Shown here: positions 15,665 through 37,918 of the stretch, one piece after another | Layout of the letters: each line of letters opens with the position of its first letter | Position numbering within the stretch: position 1 is the stretch's first letter | NCBI GenBank assembly: GCA_041612005.1 | Contig: JBFILW010000003.1 | Location: 1 to 41,339 of the forward strand | Length of the DNA: 41,339 nucleotides | Direction: 5' to 3' | Source of the DNA: Gemmatimonadota bacterium | GTDB taxonomy: Bacteria; Gemmatimonadota; Gemmatimonadetes; Palauibacterales; Palauibacteraceae | Notes under the pieces: model-generated | What the model was told of the DNA's origin: nothing | The model's database searches: none | What the model saw: only the letters and a program-made list of their open reading frames with translations | Made by a program: the position numbers and the translations under genes

Positions 15665-15681
15665 TGTGGAGGAACCATCGA

Positions 15682-18195: not shown

Positions 18196-18435
18196 GGTCC
18201 AAATTCGCAATGGCCTGTTTTGTAGATGTTTACAGCGTTCCACTGGCGAACTGGGCGCCACAAGGAAACCTGGCCATCAGAACGACTTGGGCTACATGCG
18301 TGCGTGTTGGCGAACATGCCCGCGCCGCGTGACCGTACCTCTGCTGTGCCTCGCGGCCGCCCGGAGCACGCGGCCCCATGGCCTCCTCGGCCGGCGGGAG
18401 GACCCGCCACTGCTATTATTCCGCGCTCATGAGCC

Positions 18436-18705
18436 ATGGCCATGAATGCCGACCGGACCATCGAGCGAATTCGAGGCCTGCGAACTCAGCTGCATGCCCT
18501 GGGCGTCGCCTCTCGAGGCCTCTTTGGCTCGCTCGCCCGCGGAGAAGAACGCGACGACAGCGATGTCGACATCCTCGTCGCCTTCAAGGGCCCGGCCCCG
18601 TTTGACCAGTACAAGGACCTCAAGCTCCTCCTCGAGGACGCTCTGGGACGGCGCGTCGAGCGCGAATTACAAGAAAAACGCGCCTTTGATTCAATTGGAG
18701 GGTAA
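18436..18705 (+). pseudogene. Minimal nucleotidyltransferase (MNT/MntA-like), C-terminally truncated
   Basis: LFGSLARGE..DSDVDILV (GS..DxD) motif. Homology appears to stop at LGRRVE, where the DNA turns AT-rich. No HEPN partner follows. Confidence 0.65.
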
Positions 18706-18707
18706 GA

Positions 18708-20066: not shown

Positions 20067-20079
20067 AGTGGCTCGAGTT

Positions 20080-20256
20080 GGCGTTGTTGCAGGACCTCCC
20101 TCAGTGCCCGATAGACTCGCGGCATGCATAGATCCGACTTTATCTTTCGGTGCCGGGTCCGGAACTGGCCCGGCACTTGAAGATGAAAACGGACCTGCGC
20201 ATGGCAGGAGTCCAACTCGTGCTCAGGTGATCGCGGCCGATTGATGCAACAACGCC
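20080..20256. mobile_element. MITE-like, internally deleted IS5-family (IS903 group) element
   Basis: Perfect 12-bp terminal inverted repeats GGCGTTGTTGCA (20080-20091) and TGCAACAACGCC (20245-20256). A short internal ORF contains RVRNWP, resembling IS903-type transposase N-termini. Confidence 0.65.
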
Positions 20257-20394
20257 GCCGCATCACCGTTTCTGCCGCGAATTCGCACAAACGCACACTA
20301 CCCGGGCACGCGCCACAGATCGCTCGCGACGCTGGCTCCGGATTTCGCGAGATCGCTCCTCGACCTGGTCAGGGTGAGCGGCGCGACAGCTTGC

Positions 20395-23868: not shown

Positions 23869-24139
23869 GGCTCGCTCTTGGATGATCCGGAAGCAAGAGG
23901 ATAACATCGACCAGCGATTGCGAAGCCGATCTGTAGCCGGAATTCCAGCAACAGGCGTGCGGCGCTCCGCTCATTCTTCTGCAATAAACAGGACCGGCAG
24001 GACGAGCAACCGCTCTCTTTGCCGTGCGGCTCCGGTATCGGGAGGTGGCGAAATGATTGTCAGCTCTGCGAGGACTCGCGTGGCGCGGAGCAGATCGACC
24101 CACGCTGACGCAGCGACGGCGCCTTGACTCACGCTGTCG

Positions 24140-24420
24140 GGACGCGTTGTTCCGTTTTTCGGGCTCGACACAGGGGCCCCCGCCGCCTCCCCCGTTCAGG
24201 CGGATCAACCCAACACGATGCGTTCCGACCTTGGCATCCCGAGCGCCGACATCCAGTCGAGTACCGGGCTCTTCACCAGGACTTCAATTCGCGGGCGCTC
24301 GAGCTCACGCGATGCGAGCTTCATTCCCACCAGCGCCTTGAATCTCGAGACGGCGTTCTCCGCAAGGCTCTGCCGGGTCACGCCACTCGACGTGCGCCAC
24401 GGATACCGGCCCTCTATAGA
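24140..24420 (-). mobile_element. IS5-family (IS903 group) transposase 3' remnant
   Basis: Translation W.TSSGVTRQSLAENAVSRFKALVG.KLASR....IEV..K..VLDWMSALGMPRSERI matches the decayed C-terminus of IS903-like transposases. A degenerate IR-like GCGTTGTT lies near 24144. Confidence 0.75.
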
Positions 24421-24553
24421 GTAAGCAGCTATTGGCGAATGAAAATCTACGGACAAAGCTCGCCAGTAGCCGACGTGAAACTGCTTTCTTGTGCACGCAT
24501 AATGTACCAGTTGCATGCGGCAAGAAACTGGCTCGGCCGTGCAAGGAGGGGCA

Positions 24554-25285
24554 ATGAGCGGGAAAAGCTTCACCGAAATGGAACGCGAAGGATGGCAGCG
24601 TAATGCTGCAGACTATGATGACTTTGTCCTCCCTCTCACCGACCCTGGTATCGCGCCTCTTCTTGATAGCCTCGGCCCTCTCACGGGGCGCAAAGTTCTT
24701 GAGCTCGCGTCGGGCTCGGGGCATTTAGCAGCGGCGGTTGTGGCCCGAGGTGCGACCATGGTGGGAATTGATGTGGCTTCAAAGATGGTCGAATTGGCCC
24801 GCGAGAATGTGCCTTCCGGCACAGAGTTTCTTGTGGGTGACGCCGAAGCACTGGATTTCGAGGACAGCAGCTTCGATGCAGTGACATGCAGCTTTGGCTT
24901 TCTGCACTTCGCGGAGCCCGAACGCGTTTTCCATCAAGTCGTCAGAGCGCTCAAACCAGGTGGCCGGTTATTCTTCACAGTTTGGCAAGAACCGGACGAG
25001 GGAAATGAATTTCTTGGGCTGGTGCTCAGTACAGTTCAATAGCACGCGAACCTTGATGTTGACCTGCCTCCCGCGCCGCCGATGTTTGCATTGGCTCACC
25101 CAGAAACTGCGAAAAGAATGTTGAGTCAGTCCGGGTTTGTCGATGTGGGCGTACAAGACCTACCCATCGAGGTTTCGGTGGATAGTGGCCCGACTCCGCT
25201 TGAGTTCTTGTTGAATGGCGCGGTGCGCGGACGAATGCTGTACGACCTACAAACACCCGACATCACTGCGCGCAAGCCCGACTAG
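24554..25285 (+). pseudogene. Class I SAM-dependent methyltransferase with in-frame amber stop
   Basis: RBS AGGAGG; LELASGSG, GDAEAL, SFDAV and LKPGGR motifs. TAG at 25040-25042, after which the same frame continues (HANLDVDLPPAPPMF...) to 25285. Confidence 0.8.
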
Positions 25286-25459
25286 TGTAAACGCTTGGTG
25301 TCTGCAACGACTGCCGGGCCTCGTCTTCGCAGGGAAAGAGGACGCACGCTACCCCATCATCCTCGAGAATGTTGCAGTACGCGTTGAAGAACACATAGTG
25401 CTCCATCTGCCGTACCTCCAGATGCCCTCGCAAGACTGATGCGAGAAAGGAGATGAATA

Positions 25460-26701
25460 GTGAAGACTATCAACGCTTTTTCCGTGGCTGTTGGCATGTG
25501 TTTGCTGCTAATCGGCCCCACGCCGACCGCCGCGCGCCCGGACACCACCGCTCGTGGATACGACCGCCCGCCGGGGGGCGGCGTACAACGCGGCCACGAC
25601 CGGGTCTCGAGCAACCGGCACCACAACCGACGTGCCATCATTCGTGTGCCGGGAGATTTCGAAACGATTGGCGCAGCCATCGAAGGCGCTCCGGACCGCG
25701 CGACGATATTCATTCGCCCGGGCGCCCACGTGCTTCTGGAGACGCTGCGCGTCGACGGCAAGCGCCTACGGATCATGGGCTCCCGGGTAGCCAGGACCGA
25801 GCTCATATCGCCGAGCCTCGATGTCGGGATTTTTCACTACACCAACGGCGGAGGCGGCGAGCTAAAGAACCTTCATCTGATCGGGGGTGCGTACGGGGTC
25901 GGCGCCAACCCGGGCGAGCGTCGAGCCTCTGCCTTGCCGTCAGCCCTCAAGGTCGAGAACCTTTCCATCTCCGGGGGCTTCCGAGGCGTCTACGGAGCAT
26001 TCTCGAGCCTCTCCATGAAAAACGTCTCGGTGCATCATACAAAGTGGAACGGTGTTTCACTAACCTACCTTGCCCAAGACACGACCTTGACCGATATGCA
26101 GATATACGAATCTTTGGCCGTCGGCCTCTGGATTGACAACAGCGGTCCGGGCGACGTCACTATCGGAGGTCATTTTCATCACAATGCGTTCGCTGGCGTT
26201 CAGGTTAGCGGGAACAACGGAGACGTCCACTTCTTATTCACGGTAGCCGACAACAACGGTCTGTTTGGTGTATTGCTCATCGACGTGAGCGCTCAGATGG
26301 CGCTTAGCAGTTTGTCGGATCAGCGTGACGCACCGCCCGTGCACTCTCCCCCCGGGCCCAACGATGTCTGTGAGGGTGCCGGACTGGCCGTGACCGGGGG
26401 CTCGGTGGTGTTCGTTTCGGGAACACTGTTCCGGGACAACTGCCTCGGCCTTGGCACCGTGGATTCTACCGTGACGGTTAACAACAGCAGCTTCAACTCC
26501 ACCGATCTTCAGTTGGGGGAATCGATTGCAGTCTTCAACAGTGCCTTGTTACCTCAACTCTTCGGTGCGCCCCTGGACCAGGGTGGAGGTGCGAACGTCT
26601 GCGGATACCTCCTGGGGTCACCGGGTGAAATCCAGGTCCCTTGTGGTGAGTTTATCGAGGGCCCGCCGCAGCCACCCGAGATGGTCGGAGGATTGGAGTA
26701 G
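25460..26701 (+). CDS. Secreted right-handed parallel beta-helix (pectin lyase-like fold) protein
   Basis: RBS AAAGGAG and GTG start; signal peptide; RVPGDFETIGAAI...TIFIRPG cap motif; N/G-rich coils (HHN..AGV, DNN..FGV). Confidence 0.7.
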   Translation: MKTINAFSVAVGMCLLLIGPTPTAARPDTTARGYDRPPGGGVQRGHDRVSSNRHHNRRAIIRVPGDFETIGAAIEGAPDRATIFIRPGAHVLLETLRVDGKRLRIMGSRVARTELISPSLDVGIFHYTNGGGGELKNLHLIGGAYGVGANPGERRASALPSALKVENLSISGGFRGVYGAFSSLSMKNVSVHHTKWNGVSLTYLAQDTTLTDMQIYESLAVGLWIDNSGPGDVTIGGHFHHNAFAGVQVSGNNGDVHFLFTVADNNGLFGVLLIDVSAQMALSSLSDQRDAPPVHSPPGPNDVCEGAGLAVTGGSVVFVSGTLFRDNCLGLGTVDSTVTVNNSSFNSTDLQLGESIAVFNSALLPQLFGAPLDQGGGANVCGYLLGSPGEIQVPCGEFIEGPPQPPEMVGGLE

Positions 26702-26722
26702 CACGGGTACGGCCTTCGACTT

Positions 26723-26975
26723 GTGTGCTACCTCATGCCATCCGGCTACGTCGTCGGACTTGTCTTGGATGCCGGCATGCTTGGCGTGGCGAAGCGTCGA
26801 GCAGATGAAGAGGAACTCACCGTCGACTGGCGCCAGGGCGACGTCCAGGAGATGCCTTTCGAATCCAACGAGTTCGACGTCGTGCTCTGGTGCCAGGGCC
26901 CACAGTTCTGTCCTGACAAGCAAGGGGCACTTCGAGAGACTTGCCGAGTCCTTCGGGCAGACGGACGCCCGATCA
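26723..26975 (+). pseudogene. SAM-dependent methyltransferase fragment
   Basis: VVGL...GML.VAK...DWRQGDVQEMPFESNEFDVV...ALRETCRVLRADGR. Motif I is missing, and the ORF is cut off at the IS-like end at 26976. Confidence 0.65.
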
Positions 26976-27102
26976 GGCGTTGTTGATTTTGCGGACACCA
27001 GCGAAGCCGTGGTTGCCGTCTTCTCGGGTCGGGACGGAGCAACCCCGCAGAACTCGCTCCGATATGGGCATCCCGAGCGCGGCCGATTCATGCAACGACG
27101 CC
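26976..27102. mobile_element. Second IS903-like MITE remnant
   Basis: Left end GGCGTTGTTG (26976) and right end CGCGGCCGATTCATGCAACGACGCC (to 27102), both similar to the ends of the 20080-20256 element. Confidence 0.55.
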
Positions 27103-27120
27103 GCCGCGGCATCCGACGGC

Positions 27121-27927
27121 CTAGCCCGGGCGTATCTTCACCGGCCGCATCAGCCCGTCGGCGATGTCAAAGCAGACCTCAGAGTAGTGCAGCTCGTCGC
27201 AGAGGCACAGCCACAGCGTGTTCAGGATCGCGCTCGCCGCCATCAGATTGGCGAACAGGATCTGCGGGGCCGAGCCCGCGGCAGCCTCGACGCAGCTCAG
27301 CTCGCCGGGCGCCCTGTCGGCGGGCTCGCGGATCTCGGCGTGGTACCGGGACAGCGAGGGTGTGATGTCGACGCCATCGCGGCGGACGTATACCTGGCAG
27401 CCGCCGTAGGTGCCCCGCAGCAGCGTGCCGTCGGCGCGTTCCTCGATGCCATCGTTGCCGCCCGAGATCAGGCAGACGTCGCGCAAGTGCTCCGCGCAAT
27501 AGTCGGTCACCAGCTTGCGGGTGGCATGATTGTCGACGGCGAGCACGACGGTCTCACCGTCGTGAACGAGCCGCTCGATGTTCGATTCGGTGACGTGCTC
27601 CTCGATCGCGGCGATGGTGAGGGTCGACCCGGCCAGGAAACCGAGCAGCTCGTCGCGCGTGACCGCGGCCTTGTTGGCGTAGGTATCGAATACCATGCGC
27701 CCGGCATTGCCGGGCTCGAATGCGTCGCCGTCGACGAGCACGAAGCGGGCGGGCTGGCCGAGGGACGCCAGGAACAGGGCGCCGTAGCGGGCGACGATGC
27801 CACCCACGCCGCCAATGCCGAAGAGCTTGACCGTGCTGCCCGCCGCGAGGTACGGCACGAGCGCCGTGCCACGAGCGCGCTCGGTCACCGCGTCGCCGGC
27901 TCGCGGGCCGATGATGGGTGTCGTCAT
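27121..27927 (-). CDS. E1-like / ThiF-family adenylyltransferase (module B)
   Basis: GIGGVG; VDGDAFEPGNAGR; NKA; LAVDNHATRK; SGGND; candidate catalytic Cys in ELSCVE; PQILFAN. ATG overlaps the upstream stop (TGATG). Confidence 0.88.
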   Translation of the reverse strand: MTTPIIGPRAGDAVTERARGTALVPYLAAGSTVKLFGIGGVGGIVARYGALFLASLGQPARFVLVDGDAFEPGNAGRMVFDTYANKAAVTRDELLGFLAGSTLTIAAIEEHVTESNIERLVHDGETVVLAVDNHATRKLVTDYCAEHLRDVCLISGGNDGIEERADGTLLRGTYGGCQVYVRRDGVDITPSLSRYHAEIREPADRAPGELSCVEAAAGSAPQILFANLMAASAILNTLWLCLCDELHYSEVCFDIADGLMRPVKIRPG

Positions 27928-28688
27928 CAGTTCACTCCGTTGACGGGACCGGCGCCCGGGTACGGACCGTAGGCCGGATAGGCGGCCTGCTCGTGCTCGA
28001 GATCGATCGTGACGCACTCGAGCCAGGCTTGCGGAAAATCGGCGCTCCGGCGCTCGTAGGCCGCCATCGCCGCGCCGGGCTCGACCGTGAATCGCACGCC
28101 GTCGACGACGAACTCGCAGTGGAACTCCGGCGGCTCCTCGTCGATCCGCCCGACCACGATGTGCAGCCCGGCGCGGTAGGCTTCGTCCTCCTGATCGGTG
28201 TGCGACGCGTAAGCCGCGCCGTCGCCATGGCTGTGAATGGTGCCGATCGGGCTCTGCCCGGGGCCGAGGTCGTCACCGAGATCGTAGTGCACGTCGAGCG
28301 GATGGCGCCGCCCGGTCCAGCCCTCGCGCACCGTCGCGCGCTGCGCCGGGACGTGCACCTCGATGCGCCCCGCTTCCCGGTCCCAGACGAGCACCGCGGC
28401 GGCCTCGGCGCGGTGGCGTTCGAAGACCTCGTCGAAGAACCCGACGAGGCGCTCGATATCCGGCTGGGGGATCTGCGGGTAGTGCAGCCGCACCGTCTGG
28501 TCGTGCGGGGCGAGCTCGGTGGGCCAGGTGCGCGCACTTACGCAGCTCGAGAACAGCGGGTGGTTGCGACACAGGAACAGACCGTTCGAGCCAAGCACGT
28601 AGTAGACCGGCGCGTCCTCCGGCAATGGCATGTCGGCAGTCGTCTTGACGTAGATGGGCGTGACCAGGTTCTCGTCGGGGTGTCTCAT
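27927..28688 (-). CDS. JAB/MPN metallopeptidase (PRTRC protein A-like, module B)
   Basis: YVLGSNGLF N-terminal domain; catalytic Glu in AEAAAVLVW; GTIHSH.....YASHTD JAMM motif; GLHIVVG. ATGA overlap with the upstream E2. Confidence 0.88.
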   Translation of the reverse strand: MRHPDENLVTPIYVKTTADMPLPEDAPVYYVLGSNGLFLCRNHPLFSSCVSARTWPTELAPHDQTVRLHYPQIPQPDIERLVGFFDEVFERHRAEAAAVLVWDREAGRIEVHVPAQRATVREGWTGRRHPLDVHYDLGDDLGPGQSPIGTIHSHGDGAAYASHTDQEDEAYRAGLHIVVGRIDEEPPEFHCEFVVDGVRFTVEPGAAMAAYERRSADFPQAWLECVTIDLEHEQAAYPAYGPYPGAGPVNGVN

Positions 28689-29533
28689 CGGGGCACCTGC
28701 TGCGGCTGTTTCCCGTGGTTGAACACGAGCCGGGCGATGTCGCTCGCGCACGCGACGCGCGGATTCTCGCCCGCCCGGCACTCGGCGATCCGCGCCGCCA
28801 TCTGTCGGACGCTCAGCTCGACCGGCAGCCACGGCACCTCGAGCACGAACAGGGGCGCCGCTCGCGTCGCGTCTTCCCACGCCTCGATGGTGGCCACGCG
28901 CGGATCCACGCCCCGAGACTCGCTGAACCAGCTGGTGAGCTCGTGGTGCTCGCTGCTGTAATTGAAGCCGGTCTCGAAAAGGCAGCTGAGCAGCGCCTGC
29001 AACGCGCAGCGCATGCGCTCGCCGTTGTCCCGGGTCGCCTGGAGCTTCTCGAAGTCCAGGTGCTGGGTGCAGATCCACGACAGCGGTCTGTTCCGCCTGT
29101 CGGGCCCGAACTTCGAGCAGTTGAGCAGGGCCGGGTAGCACAGCGCATCGTCGAGGCTCTGCATCGGCTCGTTTCGAAAGAAGCACTCGTTGGCGCCGGT
29201 GAGCTGTGGCCGCCCGCGCCGGTCGGCCGCGAAGACGGCGAACACGATCACGTAAGGCAGTGCGATGGTCACGTCGCGGTAAGTCGTGCCCTTGCCGTAG
29301 GGCGCCGGCGAGTCCTCGGCGATCCAGCGCAGGCGGTGCACCCGGGGCGATGTCTGGTGCACCCACACGGTCAGCGGGCCGCTGCGGAACTCGCGCTTGA
29401 GCCCGTCGGGGTACACGGCGTCGAGCGGGCGCGGCGAGAGCAGCTCCACCAGGCGCTCGACCTCGAGCGAGGCCGTCTGGCCCTCGGGCGAGGTCGCAAT
29501 CACCTGCGAGTGATCGATGGTGACGGTTTCCAC
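28685..29533 (-). CDS. E2-like (UBC fold) protein, Prok-E2_D / PRTRC protein B-like (module B)
   Basis: IALPYVIVF, CFFRNEP..SLDD.L.YPALLN...WIC (candidate catalytic Cys) and FETGFN. Position between Ubl and JAB supports the call. Confidence 0.65.
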   Translation of the reverse strand: METVTIDHSQVIATSPEGQTASLEVERLVELLSPRPLDAVYPDGLKREFRSGPLTVWVHQTSPRVHRLRWIAEDSPAPYGKGTTYRDVTIALPYVIVFAVFAADRRGRPQLTGANECFFRNEPMQSLDDALCYPALLNCSKFGPDRRNRPLSWICTQHLDFEKLQATRDNGERMRCALQALLSCLFETGFNYSSEHHELTSWFSESRGVDPRVATIEAWEDATRAAPLFVLEVPWLPVELSVRQMAARIAECRAGENPRVACASDIARLVFNHGKQPQQVPR

Positions 29534-29539
29534 GCCCGG

Positions 29540-29866
29540 CTACCTCAGGCAGTGCGCCCGGCTCGGGTCGCCCTTCTCGCCGGCACGCATGACGAAGGAA
29601 AGCGTCTGACCGACGCGGATCCGCGTACTCTCGTCGACCGGATCGCCGTCGAGGATGGCCTGGCTGGCCGGGCCGATGTCGAACCGGTCCTGGTAGCGCT
29701 CGCGCACCGCCTGCACGGTCATCCCGGCGACCGGCAAGGTTTCGGCATAAGGGCCGTGCGTCACGGTGGCGACGCCCGCGGGCGCCGCGTCGGCGGCCAG
29801 CGAATCCCCAAGCCCAGCGGGCCCCGACAGGGTGTCCAGAGTTGGCCGCAATTCGCGCTCGCTCAT
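29540..29866 (-). CDS. Ubiquitin-like beta-grasp protein with C-terminal extension (Ubl-B)
   Basis: GMTVQAVR...DI...AILDG..V.....I..GQTLSF..RAGEKG, then a 9-aa tail DPSRAHCLR. RBS GAGGAG. Confidence 0.8.
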   Translation of the reverse strand: MSERELRPTLDTLSGPAGLGDSLAADAAPAGVATVTHGPYAETLPVAGMTVQAVRERYQDRFDIGPASQAILDGDPVDESTRIRVGQTLSFVMRAGEKGDPSRAHCLR

Positions 29867-29907
29867 GGTGCTGCTCCTCGGTGCTATCTGCTTCTCGCCG
29901 CCCGTGC

Positions 29908-31653
29908 TCAGGCGACCCGTTCGATCTCGTAGGGCTGGACCGCGCGCGGGGCGGGTCGGTGCAGGCTCGCAACGCGCACCCCGTCGGGGAGATCGAGATA
30001 CTGGTGGGCGTTGGCCTCGGTGAGCTGGTCGACCGTGGCGCGCGCCACCGCCTCGATCGCGCCGAGCAGCGTTGCCCGGTCGAGTGTCGCGGGTGCGTTG
30101 TCCGCCGCCTCGCGCAGGCAGCCGGCCTCCGCGGCGCGCTGCACGGCGAGGTCGATGTGCGCCGCGGTCAGGAAATCGGCGACCGACTTCGCGACCCGCG
30201 AGGTCGAACCCGCGAACGTGAGCTCGATGAGCGGCTGCCGGGCGTGCGCAGGCCCATGCACCCAGCTCGACACCTCGGCGACCAGCCGCTGGCGGGCCTC
30301 CGGCTCCGTCTCGCCAGGCTCACACGCGATCGGCCGGCCGACGAGCTGCTTGTCGAGCACGGGCATGAACTCGCGGCGCGTGAGGCGCCCGAACCGCTCG
30401 ACGGATCCCCCGACGCGGCGCAGGAACGCCGGGTCGACGAGGTGGGCGACGTTGGTCGTCGCGACGAAGAGGATCAGGCGATCACTGACGCACGCGTGCG
30501 TCGCGTCGAGCCGCTGCAACATCGTCGTCAGGATGCGGTCGTGGACCGGCTCCCCGCCGCGCCCGCGGGCGACCCCGTCGGCTTCCTCGAGGATCACGAG
30601 CACCGGCAGCCGAAAGCGGCGGCCGTCACCCGTCACGAACTCTTCGTCGGCCAGCTGCTCCATCTCATCGAAGAACCGGGCCAGGTTCTTGTCCGAATCG
30701 CCGAGCCACTTGCTGAGGAACTCTGCCGGGCGCAGCCGCATCACGCGCGGCGGCAGCGCTTCGACCGGCACCCCGGTGTGCTCCGACATGAGCTCGTAGA
30801 GCCCCCGCCACAGGGCGAGGATGCTGAAGCTCTTGCCCGAGCCGCTGACGCCTGCGAGCAGCCGCGTGACGCTCCGGCGGAGCCGCCAGCGCCGGCGGAG
30901 CCCCGGATTCTCGAGCTCCTGGCGGACGATGGCGAGCAGCTCCGCGATGTAGGGTGGCGGCGCGCCGAGGTCCCGCGCGGCGTCGACCTCCGGCACCGGC
31001 ACGCGCGCCAGGAAGCGGTAGTGTGAATGCCCGTCGGCAGGCGGCAGCGCGTCGAACGCCATCATTTGCCGCGGGCTCACCAGCAGTGTGGCGCCGGGCG
31101 CGACGTCTCCGGCCTCGATGCGCCGGGTGAGCGCGGCGGCGGCAAAGTAGACGGCCCGCGCGTCGCCGCGCCCCGTCACCTCCACGCGGCCGCCGTCGAG
31201 CACGAGTTCCAGGCGGGCTTCCTCACCGGTCTCGGGCGGCGCCGGATCGCGGAACAGGAGCGCCTTGCCGCTGGTCTCCAGGAACACCGTGTCCCCGCGC
31301 TGCAGGAGATCGGCCAGCGCCCGGTCCGGGATCGGGACGGACGCCGAAGAGCCGTCGTCCAGCAGCACCCTGGCGCGCGGCGCGCCGCCGTCCGCCTGGT
31401 GCAGCGCCAGGAAGATCGCCGTGCGCAGCGCCCCCCGCTCGAGATCCTGTCGCACGGCCTCCAGCTCGGCGAGCTTCACCTCGTAGTTCGCGGCGCTGTT
31501 TCCCGCGGCGGCGGCCTCGAGCACCTTCGCGATGACGCTGGATGACGCCTCGCTGTCGTCCATGCACAGCTGCGCGAGTAGCTGCTTGCGGTGCCCGGCG
31601 GGCACGTCGGCGTCGGTGAGCACGCTCAACATCTTGTCTTTTCGTCTGGCCAT
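29908..31653 (-). CDS. ARC/Mpa-like (proteasomal-type) AAA+ ATPase
   Basis: N-terminal helical/coiled-coil region, two OB-like segments (LQRGDTVFL, APGATLLV), Walker A GVSGSGKS, pore loop EFLSKWLGDSDK, Walker B VILEEAD, and ATTN...VDPAFLRR second region of homology. Confidence 0.8.
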   Translation of the reverse strand: MARRKDKMLSVLTDADVPAGHRKQLLAQLCMDDSEASSSVIAKVLEAAAAGNSAANYEVKLAELEAVRQDLERGALRTAIFLALHQADGGAPRARVLLDDGSSASVPIPDRALADLLQRGDTVFLETSGKALLFRDPAPPETGEEARLELVLDGGRVEVTGRGDARAVYFAAAALTRRIEAGDVAPGATLLVSPRQMMAFDALPPADGHSHYRFLARVPVPEVDAARDLGAPPPYIAELLAIVRQELENPGLRRRWRLRRSVTRLLAGVSGSGKSFSILALWRGLYELMSEHTGVPVEALPPRVMRLRPAEFLSKWLGDSDKNLARFFDEMEQLADEEFVTGDGRRFRLPVLVILEEADGVARGRGGEPVHDRILTTMLQRLDATHACVSDRLILFVATTNVAHLVDPAFLRRVGGSVERFGRLTRREFMPVLDKQLVGRPIACEPGETEPEARQRLVAEVSSWVHGPAHARQPLIELTFAGSTSRVAKSVADFLTAAHIDLAVQRAAEAGCLREAADNAPATLDRATLLGAIEAVARATVDQLTEANAHQYLDLPDGVRVASLHRPAPRAVQPYEIERVA

Positions 31654-31655
31654 CG

Positions 31656-32780
31656 TCAGCACCCCTCCGGGTCGAAGTCTTCGAGCACGTGGTACCCGCG
31701 TTCGAGCAGCCGCCCGTCGCGCAGCCCGAACAATCCCTGGTCGCGCTCGTGCCGCGCGTTCAGCCCGAAGATATGGCAGAGCTGCCAGGGCTGACGGCGG
31801 AACACGGCCCGGTTCCAGTTCCAGTCGTCGAGGGAAACGAACACGGAGCTCCGCGTGCACACGGTGCGTCTTGCGCAGTCCGGGCAGGGCGGCGCACCGT
31901 CGGCGGGAATGAAGTTGTGGCCGTGGCACTGGCCGACGATACGCAGACCGCGGGTCGCGGCGTGACGCTGCCTCGCCTCCATCACGGCTCGGATGCGCGT
32001 CCAGGTGCGTGCGGAGAAGGCAAGCGAGTAGGCGGTCTGATCCGCGTCCTGCGCCTCGAGCACCTCGACCACGACGGCGAAGAAATCGCCGCTCACGGGA
32101 CAGCTGCACAGGAAACCGACGAGCACCCCGCCGGTCTCGACGGGTGGGTGATGTTCGGCGCCGCGGCGCGCGCAGCGCTCCGCGGCGGCAAGGGCCGCGG
32201 CGGTGTAGAAGACGCCGTACGGGCTCGGCGTGGCGGCCGCGGGGCCGACCGGCCTGGCACGGCGAAGGAGCGGCGCGAGCTCGATCGCGAGCGGTTCCAA
32301 TGGTCGCGTCTGCACCTCGGGCAGGCTCACGTCGAGCGGCCTACCTGCACCGGCGCCCGCTGCTTCGTCGCACGCGATGTGGTAATAGAAGACGTCTCTC
32401 GCCTGCAGTTTCCCCTCGCCGGCCATGCGCTCGGCGGCACGCCGCGCAACGTGCTCGAGGCTGAACACGGAAAAGCGACGCTGCACGGTGCGCCCGTCTG
32501 CCCCGGGCGACTCCAGGAAGTAGCCCGTGCATGCCTGCCCGGAACCGGCGCGCTCCGGCCGCAGCCGGACCGGCACCTCATCGAGCGCGGTCCCGGTGTC
32601 GCCGTTGCGCAGCGACTCTTCGAGCCACAACTCGCTGACCGCGTCGACCAGGTCGCTCGGGCCGACCGGCTCGCGCGCCAGCTCGGGGCCGTCCTGCGCG
32701 AGGCGGAGCACGATCGCGAGCAGGGGCGAGGCGGCGCGCTCCGCGCCGCCTCGTGCGCCGATGGTGCCGGGTTGCGTCAC
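31656..32780 (-). CDS. JAB/MPN metallopeptidase with N-terminal domain and Cys-rich insert (module A)
   Basis: VETGGVLVG (catalytic Glu); IVGQCHGH; insert CPDC..C; FVSLDD; F..PWQ. GTG start. Confidence 0.78.
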   Translation of the reverse strand: MTQPGTIGARGGAERAASPLLAIVLRLAQDGPELAREPVGPSDLVDAVSELWLEESLRNGDTGTALDEVPVRLRPERAGSGQACTGYFLESPGADGRTVQRRFSVFSLEHVARRAAERMAGEGKLQARDVFYYHIACDEAAGAGAGRPLDVSLPEVQTRPLEPLAIELAPLLRRARPVGPAAATPSPYGVFYTAAALAAAERCARRGAEHHPPVETGGVLVGFLCSCPVSGDFFAVVVEVLEAQDADQTAYSLAFSARTWTRIRAVMEARQRHAATRGLRIVGQCHGHNFIPADGAPPCPDCARRTVCTRSSVFVSLDDWNWNRAVFRRQPWQLCHIFGLNARHERDQGLFGLRDGRLLERGYHVLEDFDPEGC

Positions 32781-32786
32781 GGCGGA

Positions 32787-33077
32787 TCAGCCGAGATGGG
32801 TCCGCGGCGTAATCGCGACCCGGGCGTCCGGGACGATCTGATCGCCGATGGCCACGTCGTCGTCCAGGTAGACGCTGGTCGACTCGTCGCGCAGCGCCCA
32901 CGGCACGTTGTCGGGCAACGACATCCGGTCGGCGACCGTGCGTGCCACGGCGGATGCCGGCAGGCTCGACTGCAGGTCCCCGACCTCGAGCTCGTTGGTG
33001 CCGGTCACGTCGGTGGCGATGAAGCGGAAGGCGTCCTGTGCGCCCGGTCCGGCGGCGGTCGTGTCGAGTGCGGTCAT
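32787..33077 (-). CDS. Ubiquitin-like beta-grasp protein ending in Gly (Ubl-A)
   Basis: 96 aa; RBS AGGAG. Strand-strand-helix-strand pattern (FRFIATDVTG, VARTVADRMSLP, WALRD, LDDD..IGD, VAITP) ending in THLG-stop; operon context supports the call. Confidence 0.72.
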   Translation of the reverse strand: MTALDTTAAGPGAQDAFRFIATDVTGTNELEVGDLQSSLPASAVARTVADRMSLPDNVPWALRDESTSVYLDDDVAIGDQIVPDARVAITPRTHLG

Positions 33078-33108
33078 CTTGTGTACTCCTGTATTGTCGG
33101 CCCGGGCA

Positions 33109-33918
33109 CTATGCCCAGCCGGGTTGAAGCGTGGCGTCCGCGCATGCATGCGTGACGTCCACGAGAAACTGAACGGGCTCGAGCACCCAGGCGACCACCC
33201 AGCGCAAGGCGTCGACCGCGATCGGCAGAAGGGCCTCGAGCACCGGCGGCGGGGCGCCCGTGAGATCGATCTCCGCCCGGATGCCCCCGTCCACGAGCCC
33301 GACGCGAGCCAGGCGCCACCGCGACTGGGCGTCGGTCAGGACCCGGCCGAGCCATGCCCGCCGCCCGGCGTCGAGGCCATCGGGGCAGGGGGCGACGGGG
33401 AACTCGACGGCGAGCCGCTGCCGTGAGTGAACGAGCCTGCCTTGCCGCGCAAGGCCGCTGGCACGGACGGTCAGGGCGTCGTCGGGGAGCCACCCCCGAA
33501 CCGTTTCCAGCGGCGGCGGGGACCAATCGCCGAATGCGACTCTTCCCGGGGCGACGCTTCCCGGGCGGGTGGCGCGCGCCCACGCGACGACATCGGCGAA
33601 CACGTTCTGGCCGCCGTCGTCGGCCCGCATGGCGTTGCCGACCCGCAGCGAAGCGAGGGGCACCTCGAAGACGCTGCGCGAGCGCTGCAGGCCCCGCTCG
33701 GCCAACCAGCGCCACAGTCCGGGCTCACCGAGATGGGCGTGCAGTGGCGAGCTGACCACCTGCGAGCACTTCGGCTCGAGAACGGCCCAGCCGGCGGCGA
33801 CGATGAGCCTCATGTCGTCCGACTCGTAGCCGCCCCGGGCGCGGCAGGGTCGAAACCCGATTGTCGCCAGATCTCCGAGCCGGGCATCGGGGGCCGGTGC
33901 GGCCGCAGCCGGGTTCAA
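33109..33918 (-). CDS. Hypothetical protein in the ubiquitin-like operon
   Basis: TTG start overlaps the E2 stop (TTGA) behind GGGAG and the ORF fills the gap. The C-terminal half is weakly reminiscent of YbjN/T3SS-chaperone folds (impression only). Confidence 0.6.
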   Translation of the reverse strand: MNPAAAAPAPDARLGDLATIGFRPCRARGGYESDDMRLIVAAGWAVLEPKCSQVVSSPLHAHLGEPGLWRWLAERGLQRSRSVFEVPLASLRVGNAMRADDGGQNVFADVVAWARATRPGSVAPGRVAFGDWSPPPLETVRGWLPDDALTVRASGLARQGRLVHSRQRLAVEFPVAPCPDGLDAGRRAWLGRVLTDAQSRWRLARVGLVDGGIRAEIDLTGAPPPVLEALLPIAVDALRWVVAWVLEPVQFLVDVTHACADATLQPGWA

Positions 33919-34604
33919 CGCCGCGCTCCCTGCTCGTGCTCCGGATCGGCGAGGAATGGCGCCCGACTGAGCGGTATCCGCCCGGGGTTGTGCTGCCACC
34001 ACCTGGCCGCCTCGACGTTCAGGACGCCGGCGGCGTCGGCTGCGTCGATCTGAAACGTCTGCATCGAGAGCGCGGCGTAGGCCATCAGGATCAGCTCCTT
34101 GACCCGCACGCCGGCGGGCAGCGTGTCGCCAAGGCACAGGCGCTGGACGGGTGGCGCGGAAACCTGTGCGTGCCACACGGGCTGCGGGCTCAGGATCGTG
34201 ATGAACGCGTAGCCGGGCTGCGCCTCGAGCAGGGCGGCGAGTGGATAGCACAGGCCGAGCACCGCGCCGCCGACGATCTCGATGTCGCCGTCGCCCGGCT
34301 CCCGCGTCGCCACCGGCACCCGCAGCTCGCAGAGCGCCTTGAGCTCGTCCCCGAGTGAGAGCTGATGGACCGTCAGCCGGCGCGGCGCCCGCTCACAGAG
34401 CGCCAGCAGCTCCCTGGCTTCGGCCGACTTGCGCCTCACCCAGAAGCTCGAGCCGGCGGCGCTCGCGCAGGCCACGCCGAGCAGACGCCGATTGCGCGGG
34501 CTGAGGCGCTGGCGGCCCAGCCCGACGAGCCCGTCGGGATGGCGGACCTCGCCCTTCGCGGGCGTGCGGCGTCTCACTTCGTTCGCTTCGTGTCCGGATC
34601 GCAT
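33915..34604 (-). CDS. E2-like (UBC fold) conjugating enzyme (module A)
   Basis: RBS GGAGG. YP...P motif; PVWHAQVS....RLCLG (variant of HPN...IC with Cys retained); C-terminal LNVEAARW...PL. Confidence 0.78.
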   Translation of the reverse strand: MRSGHEANEVRRRTPAKGEVRHPDGLVGLGRQRLSPRNRRLLGVACASAAGSSFWVRRKSAEARELLALCERAPRRLTVHQLSLGDELKALCELRVPVATREPGDGDIEIVGGAVLGLCYPLAALLEAQPGYAFITILSPQPVWHAQVSAPPVQRLCLGDTLPAGVRVKELILMAYAALSMQTFQIDAADAAGVLNVEAARWWQHNPGRIPLSRAPFLADPEHEQGARR

Positions 34605-34618
34605 GATTGACCTCCATC

Positions 34619-35860
34619 TCACTCCTGGCTGAACAGCGCCGCGCGCTCGCCCTGCTGGACGACGACCCAGCGCGGTGTCTCGCTGCAGAGATGGCCGAGG
34701 GGGCGGTCGAGCAGCGGCCGCAACACCTCTTCCGGCGCCCGGCGGTGGGCGTGCAGAGGGTGGGCCACGAGCTCGAGCCTGCAGCTTCGGCAGCGCCCGA
34801 TCGGCGCCGCCTGCGGCACGAACCGGTCGAACGGCTGCGTGTGGCCGTTGCCGCAGATCGCGGTCGCGACGAAGCACATGTGCTCGACCTGGAAGATGCT
34901 GCGCCGGCTCGACTCGAAGCCGGCGTCGCGAAGCAGCCTGGCCGGCGTGCAGCTCGGCAGCGGCGCCGAGGCGCTGGCCCGGGCCCAGGTCACGTGCTCC
35001 ACCGGACAGTTCGGGTTTCGCAGGAGCGGCGAGATCACCGTCCGATGGGTGTACCCGTTGTACTCGAGCATCGTGTCGGCGACCGGGGCGCCCAGGCCGA
35101 GCGCGCCGCGCAGGACTTGCATCGTCGCGAGATCGGCAGCGAGCGCGCACAGGGCGCTGACGCTGCTGGTCGGCGCGGACGACGTGCTGGCGGCCGGCCG
35201 GGCATCCGCCGCGGCTTCGCAGCTGAAACGGGTCTCCCGGTTGACCAGACTCCACTCGGCGGCGCCATACAGGCAGACTCCGCAAGGCGAATCCGGGCCG
35301 GCATTGGAGAAGCAGCGCACCTGCGCCGTGAGCGACTCGCCGTGGACGGCCGCGTGGATCAGCAGCATCTCGAGGTGGACGGCGAGCTGCGCCGCCGCCA
35401 CTTCGGCCCGCAGGTTGTCGGTGGCGAGGACCATGGCGTCGACGCCACGGAAGTCGGCCACGTCCAGATCCTCCAGCCGGCCGATGCGGTAGAAGACGCG
35501 CGTGCCGGGGCTGATCTGCTTGCAGAACCGTGCGGTGCTGCCCGCCTTGTGCTCGCCGACGTCGTCGACGGCGATCGGCTGGGTCAGCAGGCTCTCCGGC
35601 TTGTAGATGGCCGGGTCGACGAGCAGCAACCTCGCGACACCCATTCGCGCCAGCGCGATGGCGACCCCGCGCCCGACCGCGCCTTGCCCCAAGACCACGA
35701 CGACCAGCTCGCGGACCGCCGCGGCGGCTTCTCCGGGCGCGGTGCCGATGAGCACCGGCATGCGTGCATCGCGCGCCGGCATCCAGCCGGGGATCGAATC
35801 CGCCGGGATGATCATCTCGGCGAAGCGGCCATGCGCCGCGTCATTCGACGACGGGCACAT
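34619..35860 (-). CDS. E1-like / ThiF-MoeB family enzyme with C-terminal Zn-binding extension (module A)
   Basis: VLGQGAVG; LLLVD; GEHKA; LATDN; PCGVCLY; candidate catalytic Cys in RFSCE; NPNCPVEH; extra CGNGH...CRSC. Start uncertain. Confidence 0.85.
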   Translation of the reverse strand: MCPSSNDAAHGRFAEMIIPADSIPGWMPARDARMPVLIGTAPGEAAAAVRELVVVVLGQGAVGRGVAIALARMGVARLLLVDPAIYKPESLLTQPIAVDDVGEHKAGSTARFCKQISPGTRVFYRIGRLEDLDVADFRGVDAMVLATDNLRAEVAAAQLAVHLEMLLIHAAVHGESLTAQVRCFSNAGPDSPCGVCLYGAAEWSLVNRETRFSCEAAADARPAASTSSAPTSSVSALCALAADLATMQVLRGALGLGAPVADTMLEYNGYTHRTVISPLLRNPNCPVEHVTWARASASAPLPSCTPARLLRDAGFESSRRSIFQVEHMCFVATAICGNGHTQPFDRFVPQAAPIGRCRSCRLELVAHPLHAHRRAPEEVLRPLLDRPLGHLCSETPRWVVVQQGERAALFSQE

Positions 35861-36467
35861 CGTCCCAGCGCTCCTCCAGGATCATCGGCCGCTTGCACGC
35901 CGCGCACTCGCGCAGAAGCGTGGCGCATTCCAGCACGTTGCTGCCGTCCTCACCGGGCTCCGATCGCCAGTGCACCGGTCCCCAACCACATGGGCAGACA
36001 TAGACCTCGTCCCGGGCGTCCACCGGCCCGCGGCACAGGGGACACTCGCGCCCGACCATCTTGGCGGTCGCGGGGGCGACGGGCGGCTTGGTGAAGCTCG
36101 CCACGTGCAGCAGCCGACCGCGGACCAGCATCTGGTCTCCACTACGCAAGAACCCGAGCGGCGGCATCGGCGTACCGTTGACGCGCGGTGCGCCTTCGCA
36201 CGCGGGCGATTGCTGCACCAGCACCAGCGGTTGTGGGCCGGCGTCGACGACCTCCAGCACCATCTTCGCGTCACCGCGCACCGAGCGCGCGAGCAGCTCG
36301 GGCACCCCGGCGGCACCGAAGCGCAGGTAGCGCGGTGCGCGAAGGAGCTCGAGCGCCCTGAGCGGGGCGTCGCCGCCGTCGGCGCTCTCGGTGACCAGGA
36401 AAAGGCGCTGCGCGCCCGGGTGGCGGCGCCGCGAGCGGTCTCCCCGCGTGTCGATCCTATCTGTCAT
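35841..36467 (-). CDS. FHA-like domain plus prokaryotic RING-like finger (candidate E3)
   Basis: RVNG......LRSGDQMLV resembles the FHA C-terminal strands. It is followed by CPLC-x11-CPC-x5-H-x14-C-x6-CAAC. Start is 36467 or 36494. Confidence 0.65.
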   Translation of the reverse strand: MTDRIDTRGDRSRRRHPGAQRLFLVTESADGGDAPLRALELLRAPRYLRFGAAGVPELLARSVRGDAKMVLEVVDAGPQPLVLVQQSPACEGAPRVNGTPMPPLGFLRSGDQMLVRGRLLHVASFTKPPVAPATAKMVGRECPLCRGPVDARDEVYVCPCGWGPVHWRSEPGEDGSNVLECATLLRECAACKRPMILEERWDDVPVVE

Positions 36468-36494
36468 GCGAACTTCTGTAGCCTTTCTTGACAC

Positions 36495-36823: not shown

Positions 36824-37918
36824 ATGACTAGAAAGCACGTCGGCAAGAGGCAGCCGCGACCGTCGAAGGCGAAGGCCGGATGCGACGAACGCCTCGTCAT
36901 CGACGACGTCGAGGTGATGTCGGCCATCTGTCGATGGTTCTGCGAGGGCAAGACGGCGCAGCAGATGGCCGATCTCGCGAACGAACACCTGCCGCTACGC
37001 ACCCCGATGACGCGGGAGGTGCCCTACAAGCTGCTGCAGAAGGCGGGGCGCATGGGTTGGTTGCATTTCCGTCCCCCGCCGCACGAGAGCCACCGCGAAC
37101 GGCTGCGCGAGCGCTACCACTGGCTGCAGGAGCTGAAGGTCGTGCACAGCGTCGCGCTCGCCGACGTGGCTCGCGAGACCGCAAGAGAGCTGTTGCGGAT
37201 GGCCCGCTCGTGGGCGGGTAAAGAGCTGCATATCGGCATTGCCGGCGGCCACTCCATGCGGGAGCTGGCGAGGGCGCTCGCGCGCGAGCTCTGCGAGCCG
37301 AAGAAGAACCTGCCGGCGACCATCTGGTTTCACGCGCTCGCGGGTGGCTTCGACCCCGGAGACCCGACCACCAACCCGAACGCCTTCTTCAACTATTTCA
37401 GTCAGGATGACATCGTCGACGTCGAGATCCGATTCCACGGTTTGAGCGCACCCGCGATCGTGCCGTCCGACAAGAGCTCCGCCTTCGAGGAAGTCGGCGA
37501 CATCAGGCTGGCGATGGATGCAGTGAAAGACGTCGACATCTTCGTCACCTCCGGCGCCAGCTGGCGGGATCGAGACAGCGCGCTGCGCAAGCGCATGCAG
37601 GACTCGGAGGGGTCGTTCGACGTGCTCGAGAAGGAGGGTTGTGTCGGCGACATGCTGTGGCGCCCGCTCTCCCGCAGCGGCCCGATCAAGACGGCGACCC
37701 TGCTCCGTGCAATGACGCTCGTCGACCTGTCTGACCTGCCGACGCTCATCGCAAACGGGAAGCGGGTGCTGCTGATGGTGTCACCGTGCGGGTTGTGCCA
37801 CGCGCCGAAGGGCGACCTGCTCGACTGCGTCCTGAACCTCGAAGAGCCCTTGATCACCGACCTGGTGGTCGATTCGCGGTCTGCGGGTCAGATGCTCGCA
37901 CGCGAAGGCGGCGCGTGA
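36824..37918 (+). CDS. SorC/DeoR/LsrR-family sugar-binding transcriptional regulator
   Basis: N-terminal HTH (FCEGKTAQQMAD...MTRE..YKLLQKA...GWL); IGIAGGHSM; SAPAIV; DIFVTSG; GCVGD; ITDLVVD. RBS GGAGG. Confidence 0.8.
   Translation: MTRKHVGKRQPRPSKAKAGCDERLVIDDVEVMSAICRWFCEGKTAQQMADLANEHLPLRTPMTREVPYKLLQKAGRMGWLHFRPPPHESHRERLRERYHWLQELKVVHSVALADVARETARELLRMARSWAGKELHIGIAGGHSMRELARALARELCEPKKNLPATIWFHALAGGFDPGDPTTNPNAFFNYFSQDDIVDVEIRFHGLSAPAIVPSDKSSAFEEVGDIRLAMDAVKDVDIFVTSGASWRDRDSALRKRMQDSEGSFDVLEKEGCVGDMLWRPLSRSGPIKTATLLRAMTLVDLSDLPTLIANGKRVLLMVSPCGLCHAPKGDLLDCVLNLEEPLITDLVVDSRSAGQMLAREGGA

Follow-up and report, generated by a model that had tools for sequence, protein, structure and literature searches.

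Can a bacterium carry, in one operon, a pathway that tags proteins with a ubiquitin-like modifier and hands them to a proteasomal-type unfoldase, and what would a second such modifier add to it? The question is raised by a cassette of 11 genes (g1–g11) at positions 27121–36494 of a 41,339-nucleotide stretch of DNA from a Gemmatimonadota bacterium of the family Palauibacteraceae (assembly GCA_041612005.1, contig JBFILW010000003.1, positions 1 to 41,339 of the forward strand; hereafter 'the window'). The cassette encodes two E1-type adenylating enzymes (E1a and E1b), a putative E2 (E2a), two JAB-type peptidases (JAB-A and JAB-B), two ubiquitin-like modifiers (Ubls; Ubl-B and the candidate Ubl-A), a RING-type E3 candidate (g1), a conserved protein (g4), an Mpa/ARC-like AAA+ ATPase (g7) and a protein (g9) that an earlier interpretation of the letters alone, the sequence-only reading, had called 'E2b'.

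Here, we describe the conservation and modularity of this cassette, the evidence bearing on each of its products, and its relation to known systems. On balance, we think it probable that the cassette is a self-contained, horizontally mobile bacterial Ubl conjugation system of two modules, with defence as its likeliest role.

Gene content and conserved order

At ~70% G+C, the window yields crowded mechanical lists of open reading frames (ORFs). The genes were resolved by plotting GC by codon position and reading the start candidates; this gave 11 consecutive minus-strand genes at 27121–36494 (Table 1). GC at the third codon position is 0.8–0.95 across g1–g11, a pattern typical of coding DNA. 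Overlapping junctions are those of g1/g2 (20 nt), g3/g4 (TTGA, by which g4 is translationally coupled to the E2a gene), g9/g10 (ATGA) and g10/g11 (TGATG); spaced junctions are g2–g3 (14 nt), g4–g5 (31 nt), g5–g6 (6 nt), g6–g7 (2 nt), g7–g8 (41 nt) and g8–g9 (6 nt). The tightly packed run of 11 ORFs first read from the letters, with its ATGA, TTGA and TGATG couplings and gaps of at most 41 nt, is thereby borne out by gene calls and coordinates. Genes g8 and g9 share a reading frame with one TAG between them (29534–29542), and the GTG of g9 follows two codons on; conceivably, the stop codon is read through, or one gene was split recently. Between g1 and a divergent plus-strand gene lie 356 nt of lower G+C, and a consensus scan for promoters gave no promoter-like site and only uninformative terminator-like sites.

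Table 1. Cassette genes and associated features (window coordinates, except where a locus handle precedes the interval).
Feature	Position	Strand	Length and remarks
g1, RING-type E3 candidate	35841–36467 from ATG, or from GTG at 36494	−	208 aa (ATG) or 217 aa (GTG)
g2, E1a	34619–35860	−	413 aa
g3, E2a	33915–34604	−	229 aa
g4, conserved, no recognised family	33109–33918	−	269 aa; TTG start at 33918
g5, Ubl-A candidate	32787–33077	−	96 aa
g6, JAB-A	31656–32780	−	374 aa
g7, Mpa/ARC-like AAA+ ATPase	29908–31653	−	581 aa
g8, Ubl-B	29540–29866	−	108 aa
g9, 'E2b'	28685–29533	−	282 aa
g10, JAB-B	27927–28688	−	253 aa
g11, E1b	27121–27927	−	268 aa
Divergent upstream gene, possible regulator	36824–37918	+	364 aa; Pfam Sugar-bind (SorC-type) 6.9e-9
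Extra gene between the ATPase and Ubl-B genes	L008:7569–8918; L013:11863–13077; L024:9592–10830; L028:11722–12969		~404–449 aa

One genome per species, for 185,579 species, was scanned with the alignment of the ATPase family, which retrieved 24 loci, a lower bound because the scan runs on two peptide patterns. Compared with the 11 window proteins by tblastn, 17 of the 24 loci carry all 11 genes in identical order. Another five (L006, L017, L022, L023 and L026) run off their contigs, which hold, in order, all the genes for which there is room; g1 was undetected in two loci, L020 (also cut) and L025. None of the 24 has a deviating gene order. The arrangement is far beyond chance, since the same order of 11 genes recurs in 17 of the 24 loci, and both the conserved gene order and the co-occurrence of the two halves, on which the sequence-only reading depended, are thus found in other genomes.

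By record title, the 24 loci include nine from Verrucomicrobiota, nine from Planctomycetota and one each from Gemmatimonadota, Acidobacteriota, Deltaproteobacteria, Eiseniibacteriota and Chromatiales; the cassette occurs in at least six phyla. Protein identity to the window ranges from ~25–40% (g1, g4) to 49–64% (g11). The ATPase family is small, with 61 clusters at 90% identity, all from metagenome-assembled genomes (MAGs) or metagenomes, and g7 was found in none of the 24 genomes of the window's own family. Family alignments exclude truncated or frameshifted ORFs (e.g. the E1a of L027 and the JAB-A of L023), and that of Ubl-B also excludes five fused forms and the L021 ORF. In L027, on a 2.29-Mb contig of a Phycisphaerales MAG, matches to E1a, to JAB-A and to the ATPase each fall into two to four pieces in different frames, reflecting either decay of the cassette or indel errors in the assembly.

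Two modules

The modularity of the cassette was studied in 401 genomes of Planctomycetota (the phylum of L013) by profile search with E2a, which matched 13 of them: five strongly, these being cassette orthologues, and eight more weakly. The eight weaker loci were fetched with their flanks and scanned with hidden Markov models (HMMs) of all eleven families. Five (L047–L051, in genomes G516, G496, G486, G566 and G521) carry a seven-gene form with the order RING–E1–E2–gap–Ubl–JAB–ATPase, and no module 2 gene was found within the 3.4–5.8 kb downstream of it. Another, L046 (G823), has the whole cassette on one contig with no detectable JAB-A (a ten-gene form), and the remaining two are other contexts. 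Five of the 401 genomes match the g9 profile, and each of them has a cassette-type E2a match as well; the set of Ubl-B, g9, JAB-B and E1b genes was met only within full cassettes.

The cassette is thus modular, being composed of g1–g7 (module 1) and g8–g11 (module 2). The ATPase is part of module 1, because five genomes carry module 1 with the ATPase and without module 2, and module 2 is an add-on. The idea that g7 serves both modules equally was rejected on the strength of the seven-gene form, and the sequence-only reading, in which two modifiers shared one unfoldase, has to be revised in this respect.

Variation was also seen elsewhere. In four loci, an extra gene lies between the ATPase and Ubl-B genes (Table 1); its products give weak AAA, AAA_16 and AAA_lid_2 matches and have the motif FNKxR(S/T)N(L/I)LLR in common. 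Three loci from the window's taxonomic order (L002, L003 and L004), of which ~4 kb each was examined, have weakly ATPase-like genes (26–29% identity; that of L003 was re-detected by tblastn) adjoining JAB-A-like genes (26–28%), possibly as more remote forms of module 1.

The tagging components of module 1

Protein g1 varies at its N-terminus and is conserved in its beta-rich middle part (RVNG...L..GD); at the C-terminus lies a C4HC3 zinc finger whose ligands C142, C145, C158, C160, H166, C181 and C188 are invariant, with C191 nearly so. Matches to Prok-RING_1 were obtained for 11 of 20 g1 orthologues (E≤0.05; best 6.1e-7), the window protein itself scoring 0.021 and 15.2 bits, under the cut-off of 29.1. 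These matches and the eight conserved zinc ligands support the RING assignment made from the letters alone. The FHA label that accompanied it finds no support: at E≤0.05, the 20 orthologues gave no match to an FHA model, which reduces the call to the 'RVNG...L..GD' resemblance. Scanned with Pfam and NCBIfam, the orthologues of g1, g3 and g5 matched nothing except Prok-RING_1 and, as noise, zinc-finger models.

E1a is composed of a ThiF adenylation domain (Pfam 3.9e-24) and a Cys-rich C-terminal extension of ~130 aa. The best PDB matches of its profile are the adenylation domain of eukaryotic UBA7 (4.4e-23), MoeB, ThiF, UBA1 and UBA6, those of UBA7, UBA1 and UBA6 being active adenylation domains. 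Together with E1b (Pfam ThiF 1.2e-13), it makes up the expected pair of ThiF-type E1s.

In E2a, an HPN-like motif lies ~8–10 residues ahead of Cys157 (family consensus VxHPNV.....QxLCLG in an alignment of 126 sequences). All 21 cassette orthologues have this Cys, and in the alignment of 126 family members its conservation is at least 90%; the family at large comprises 372 representative clusters at E≤0.001, or 157 if the threshold is set at E≤1e-30. In the 401-genome sample, the E2a-family profile matches two of the three bacterial ORFs that pass the Pfam UQ_con cut-off, aligning across HPN...Cys (E 1.3e-9 and 1.9e-6, for a search of that limited size). The nearest ESM Atlas clusters score 0.94–0.96, and one has UQ_con in 13% of its members, which is a lead only. 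Because of the HPN...Cys motif, the transitive profile link to the UQ_con ORFs and the Atlas lead, we accept g3 as a UBC-type E2, as first proposed.

Gene g4 occupies the same position in 22 of the 24 loci by tblastn, the contigs of the other two (L023 and L026) ending before that position. Residues W44, W69, W113, R205 and G221 of its product are invariant; it has no Pfam, NCBIfam or PADLOC match, and its ESM Atlas leads (YbjN, CesT) all score <0.9.

The Ubl-A candidate ends in ...(K/R)xHLG at the stop codon: of 23 aligned sequences, 22 have Gly in the C-terminal column and 20 end with it. Neither Pfam nor PDB gave a sequence match for it (in the PDB profile search, chance matches only, E≥0.16). 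JAB-A is a JAMM peptidase that contains a Cys-rich insert and is preceded by an N-terminal domain of ~190 aa without recognised family. It matches the PADLOC JAB model at 3.2e-4 (residues 199–301), and its invariant residues are the JAMM set E215, H286, H288, S316 and D319 together with C302 and C308; its family profile has no PDB sequence match at E≤0.1.

The ATPase

In g7, an N-terminal helical region is followed by an OB domain and one AAA module (Pfam AAA 6.5e-11, Prot_ATP_ID_OB_C 1.2e-4). Its profile finds Mycobacterium tuberculosis Mpa as best PDB match (1.6e-40 to 2.3e-39), over positions 57–538 and hence the OB, AAA and C-terminal regions, while VAT and p97 align over the AAA module only (~1e-29). 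The motor residues are invariant: Walker A G268/G271/G273/K274, Walker B E356/E357, pore-loop W316, sensor-1 N401 and Arg fingers R412/R413.

NCBIfam pup_AAA aligns end to end with g7 at 70.1 bits, against a cut-off of 504.75, so g7 does not count as an equivalog. Pup ligase (PF03136) was not found in the window's genome (81.5% complete), nor in four of five other cassette genomes. One proteasome-family gene lies elsewhere in the window's genome; it is probably HslV, since the Escherichia coli control matches too. The 'proteasomal-type' ATPase of the sequence-only reading is thus best understood as Mpa-like in its architecture alone. Compared with Mpa/ARC of the Pup–proteasome system, g7 has the same domain order (helical N-terminus, OB, AAA, C-terminal domain) but is encoded between a JAB gene and a Ubl gene.

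The components of module 2

In the window, the conserved ...AGEKG of Ubl-B (residue 99) precedes a tail of 9 aa; across the family, the tail varies from 0 to >50 residues, and five of 23 loci encode Ubl-B and g9 as a single in-frame fusion. Because of these variable tails and the fusions, the sequences imply processing of Ubl-B by a JAB peptidase. An AlphaFold2 model of the natural Ubl-B/E2b fusion of L021 has a mean predicted local distance difference test score (pLDDT) of 84.5, and Foldseek matched its Ubl-B domain in the PDB to NEDD8 (3dqv_B; TMt 0.64, root-mean-square deviation 2.1 over 70 columns), ubiquitin (5l6i_E; TMt 0.68) and SUMO. Judged by this model, Ubl-B fits a beta-grasp modifier precursor with an exposable Gly, in agreement with the fold first ascribed to it; the Ubl-B family profile gave only chance matches to PDB sequences (E≥0.16).

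Protein g9 has an invariant Cys (C155, in LSWICT) and an invariant Asn (N138), and its model, computed alone, reaches a pLDDT of 84.1. Pfam and NCBIfam scans of g9, g8 and g4 orthologues gave no match, and the g9 family profile met only a chance collagen match in PDB sequences (0.64). In predictions with three chains (g9, E1b and Ubl-B), the g9/E1b pair obtained ipSAE scores of 0.76, 0.77 and 0.76, whereas the best-scoring control, out of three, reached 0.00; at least 78% of contacts agree between runs, with a partner pLDDT of at least 84. The mark used is reached by 58 of 80 solved complexes and by 2 of 110 mismatched pairs, counts that hold only roughly here because our own alignments and three chains were used. 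The modelling supports, as a prediction, binding of g9 to E1b.

Five structural neighbours of g9 at E≤0.001 were found in BFVD, all uncharacterised phage proteins (best 5.8e-10, TM 0.63, query-normalised). One is a 294-aa protein of Acinetobacter phage ME3 (Foldseek E 6.1e-5, TM ~0.35), which, to judge from its equal length, may be ME3_136. The ME3 genome (KU935715.1, 135746–141287) has a one-strand run of a 101-aa ORF, a 294-aa ORF and, directly downstream of the latter, a gene annotated 'PRTRC system protein A'; ~3 kb beyond the latter, a 72-aa ORF ending in ...VLG lies directly upstream of ThiF. HMMs of g8–g11 gave no significant match to the ME3 proteins near the PRTRC_A and ThiF genes, so the link between g9 and ME3 is structural only. 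No sequence relatives of g9 were found in phage records or IMG/VR, and E1b found only weak ThiF matches on Bacillus plasmids and in two phage records.

JAB-B has the canonical JAMM motif HxH-x7-S-x2-D with H152, H154, S162 and D165 invariant. It matches Pfam Prok-JAB (6.1e-9) and NCBIfam PRTRC_A (1.1e-9; 38.1 bits vs a cut-off of 101.8), and its family profile finds only Mov34/MPN in the PDB (0.081). The PADLOC JAB and Pfam Prok-JAB matches, with the invariant JAMM residues in g6 and g10, support two JAMM/JAB peptidases. E1b is a minimal ThiF/MoeB-type adenylating enzyme with an invariant GxGGxG and C212; it aligns end to end with NCBIfam PRTRC_ThiF (27.6 bits vs a cut-off of 144.75), and the best PDB matches of its profile are Uba4, ThiF and MoeB (5e-9 to 8e-7).

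Comparison with known systems

We found no description of, or experiment on, the 11-gene or the seven-gene cassette in the literature searched, the unsearchable figures and supplements of which may show related neighbourhoods. Burroughs, Iyer and Aravind are said to have described prokaryotic RING–E1–E2–Ubl–JAB 'tri-ligase' operons in 2011. Published accounts cover RING tri-ligase operons, including the Caldiarchaeum system, and the Ubl part of FtsH-ternary systems (Kaur et al. 2020; PMC3417536, PMC7159879). As far as the accessible parts of these accounts go, tri-ligase operons resemble the cassette in combining a separate E1, an HPN-like UBC E2, a small RING E3, a Ubl and a JAB in one mobile operon, in their JAB-released Ubl–E2 fusions and, in some versions, in an AAA+ chaperone. 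They differ in that the cassette ATPase is Mpa/ARC-like rather than FtsH and no vWA, MoxR or caspase effectors accompany it, and in the second complete E1/JAB/Ubl set attached to the cassette, with a partner that has no E2 fold match.

Among better-known systems, the cassette shows the defining features of none of Bub, CBASS, PRTRC and Pup, and those of Bil were not seen either as far as the PADLOC models reach. Bil (BilABCD), an antiphage system which performs real protein conjugation, likewise has separate genes for Ubl, E2, JAB deubiquitinase and E1, a JAB-processed Ubl and the character of a mobile accessory operon (PMC11601603, in the parts consulted); in the same portions, Bil has four genes, with neither RING nor ATPase. 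The active site of BilB is described as a CEHH motif (excerpts of PMC11354881), in contrast to HPN...C in E2a, and the compact CEHH spacing is seen in neither E2a nor g9. PADLOC-DB 2.0 (2023), which may hold no Bil models, gave no Bil-specific match, only generic E1–E2 and JAB matches.

Module 2 has the order of Type I Bub (6E/DUF6527), in which a Ubl–E2 fusion is followed by a JAB–E1 fusion (PMC11601603, same parts), and Ubl-B is itself fused to g9 in the five loci mentioned. The BubE protein DUF6527 (PF20137) was not found among the 11 cassette proteins. Bub E1 and E2, according to the sections available of PMC11601596, are without catalytic Cys and use Tyr and Ser, whereas g9 and E1b have an invariant Cys; moreover, g9 has no E2 fold match.

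PRTRC is approached by module 2 in gene layout (a small Ubl-like gene, a gene of ~290 aa, JAB and ThiF) and in the alignments of g10 and g11 with PRTRC_A and PRTRC_ThiF, but those scores are far under the curated cut-offs. No PRTRC_B match was found in three cassette genomes at E≤1, the orthologues of g8 and g9 match no PRTRC model, and the 11 cassette proteins include no PRTRC B or C match and no ParB domain. With Type II CBASS (Cap2/Cap3), the cassette has in common a JAB partner and an E1a adenylation domain that matches PADLOC E1–E2 (Cap2) at 3e-12 and PDB Cap2 at 2e-10; it differs in its separate E1 and E2, dedicated Ubl and want of an effector, and no CD-NTase or nucleotidyltransferase was found among the 11 genes or their immediate neighbours.

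Genomic neighbourhood

The divergent gene upstream of g1 (Table 1) belongs to a SorC-like family present at the same divergent position in five other loci (L007, L009, L020, L021 and L025). Two other, unrelated families of similar size take this position in six further loci, and L024 has a seventh member of those alternative families, but downstream on the plus strand. These genes (~360–420 aa) thus fall into three unrelated sequence families, one with a weak match to HTH_26 (a Cro/C1 helix-turn-helix); to judge from the sequences, the divergent gene may be a regulator of the cassette and loosely part of the system. This gene aside, flanks are not conserved across loci. Most of 90 flanking ORFs scanned are unrelated or housekeeping genes; a handful match defence models, namely PDC-S41, PD-T4-6, mad2 (twice), mad6, MkoA and a Schlafen-type helicase.

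In the window, a 164-aa ORF of lower G+C (26618–27112, minus strand) begins 8 nt downstream of g11; it has no family match and no conservation at other cassette loci, and it probably lies outside the cassette. At 3 kb downstream, a gene for a 1170-aa LRR-COR-TIR protein (20395–23907, minus strand; TIR_2 7.5e-14 at the C-terminus, COR-B weak and under the Pfam cut-off) falls in a stretch (~18000–27000) of 0.56–0.61 G+C, compared with ~0.70 elsewhere, and has the appearance of an immune-type NTPase/TIR gene carried by an island beside the cassette. A full-length homologue of the selenium-binding protein SBP56 is encoded at 15664–17040 (plus strand; Pfam 1e-208). DNA nearly identical to 29908–33077 was detected in five marine-metagenome runs from two studies (0.72–0.97 of sampled words) and in one sediment-metagenome run (0.32 of sampled words); the best-matching runs may be the source sample of the window, and the public runs matching this interval include no RNA run.

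Proposed mechanism and role

We infer the following scheme for module 1. E1a would adenylate the C-terminal Gly of Ubl-A (...HLG), and the modifier would be passed as a thioester to Cys157 of the HPN-type E2a. The C4HC3 RING protein g1 would serve as E3, the target being chosen by its N-terminal region, and JAB-A would remove or edit the Ubl-A tag. A hexamer of the Mpa/ARC-like ATPase would then recognise the tagged proteins and unfold or extract them, with g4 as a putative accessory factor. Module 2 would act as a PRTRC-like mini-cascade: JAB-B would trim the tail of Ubl-B, or free Ubl-B from a fused g9, exposing ...AGEKG; E1b would activate Ubl-B; and g9 would bind E1b and carry Ubl-B on Cys155. 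Cross-talk between the modules may follow, in that the optional module 2 would most likely regulate module 1 or broaden its targets.

As to biological role, conflict with, or defence against, phages or other mobile elements appears most likely, with proteostasis as the main alternative. Defence is weakly favoured over core proteostasis because the cassette is sporadic, crosses phyla and occurs in variable contexts.

Several findings weigh against this interpretation. PADLOC matches are generic only (E1–E2 for E1a, weak JAB, weak TRIP13 and IetA for the ATPase), and the defence context is weak, since most flanking genes are housekeeping or unrelated. None of the 126 E2a-family members matches Pfam UQ_con or Prok-E2 at E≤0.05, and family-profile searches gave E2a no PDB sequence match. 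The g9 model, confident as it is, has no PDB match at E≤0.001 (Foldseek best E 0.1), no E2 occurs among the matches listed (ranks 1–49), and hhalign gave a probability of 0.2 for the g3 family against the g9 family. The E2 fold ascribed to 'E2b' is thus not borne out, and the 'two complete cascades' of the sequence-only reading are conjectural as regards the second E2; g9 is possibly an E2 diverged so strongly as to fall under Foldseek's reach. In the complex model, every confident contact joins g9 to E1b and Ubl-B takes part in none, and hhalign shows no similarity between Ubl-A and Ubl-B. Finally, the cassette encodes no protease, and the C-terminal consensus of the g7 family is xPxELERxx, which does not end in the docking motifs HbYX or GQYL of proteasomal ATPases.

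A more elaborate form of the scheme would be a two-tier pathway, in which the E1/HPN-E2/RING-E3 set tags proteins with Ubl-A for the Mpa-like unfoldase and g9-borne Ubl-B switches the cascade or the unfoldase, by analogy with the ubiquitin–Cdc48/proteasome axis and the control of cullin-RING ligases by NEDD8. We regard this elaboration as rather doubtful.

Alternative explanations

The same biochemistry might instead serve a stress response or regulated proteostasis, the cell's own proteins being tagged, unfolded and passed to housekeeping proteases rather than phage proteins being targeted. The Mpa-like ATPase and the single proteasome-family gene elsewhere in the genome, probably HslV, would suit such a role, as would flanks consisting mostly of genes other than defence genes and a divergent putative regulator gene that suggests controlled expression; for some bacterial Ubl operons, a part in stress responses has been proposed in preprints from the Corbett laboratory (PMC11601603, in the parts available). 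Against it stand 24 loci from 185,579 species (a lower bound), an ATPase absent from all 24 genomes of the same family that were searched, and varied genomic contexts in which defence genes adjoin several loci. Because the loci are sporadic, their contexts varied and some of their neighbours defence genes, an accessory conflict system fits better than core proteostasis, and we consider this alternative rather unlikely.

It is also conceivable, although in our estimation improbable, that the cassette holds one true cascade and that module 2 does not conjugate: Ubl-B and E1b would be a sulfur-carrier/adenylation pair (ThiS/MoaD-like) or have a PRTRC-type function in mobile elements, with g9 as scaffold or substrate. 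The nearest solved relatives of E1b are Uba4, ThiF and MoeB, g9 lacks an E2 fold match, g10 and g11 weakly resemble PRTRC_A and PRTRC_ThiF, and the g9 fold occurs in phage proteins; in ME3, a 294-aa ORF equal in length to one of these adjoins a gene annotated PRTRC protein A, ~3 kb from a ThiF gene. However, the fusions of Ubl-B to g9, accompanied by a JAMM protein (five of 23 loci), repeat the layout of a Ubl–E2 fusion plus JAB of conjugating systems, matched in Type I Bub (PMC11601603) and FtsH-ternary systems (PMC7159879) as described in the available text of both. The invariant Cys of g9 and its predicted binding to E1b argue in the same direction, the cassette has no sulfur-metabolism genes, and genomes with the g9 family also carry a cassette-type E2a.

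A mere neighbourhood of two or three systems without functional link, of the kind met in defence islands, is very improbable: module 1 with the ATPase exists alone and the g7/g8 junction tolerates insertions, as the extra gene of ~410 aa in four loci implies, but 17 of the 24 loci, drawn from different phyla and with 37–64% protein identity, agree in gene order and close packing, the g9 family occurs only in genomes with a cassette-type E2a (5 of 401), and stop/start overlaps bind the genes inside each module, the modules being 41 nt apart in the window. Equally remote is a role of g7 as genuine activator of a 20S proteasome in concert with Pup, the Ubl genes being incidental, for which Mpa as best solved relative and the end-to-end pup_AAA alignment speak, but against which stand 70 bits relative to a cut-off of 505, the failure to find a Pup ligase in the window's genome (81.5% complete) and in four of five other cassette genomes, a single proteasome-family match of a kind that E. 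coli also has, and an ATPase gene always flanked by JAB-A and Ubl genes.

Significance

If the chemistry of the conjugation system set out above is right, the cassette is the most eukaryote-like ubiquitin-type pathway that we have found described or implied in bacteria, as it would unite in one operon a separate E1, an HPN-type E2, a RING E3, a deubiquitinase, a modifier ending in Gly and a proteasomal-type unfoldase, together with a second modifier system. Its strict synteny offers clean material for reconstitution, and natural variants (the seven-gene form, the form without JAB-A, the Ubl–E2b fusions and the forms with an extra ATPase) provide genetic controls. Protein g9 is a structural target in its own right, with a confident model, no neighbour among solved structures and neighbours in phages. 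Three questions are thereby made testable: how a bacterial RING works with its E2, what a second, orthogonal Ubl adds, and whether the coupling of a Ubl tag to an AAA+ unfoldase is older than eukaryotes.

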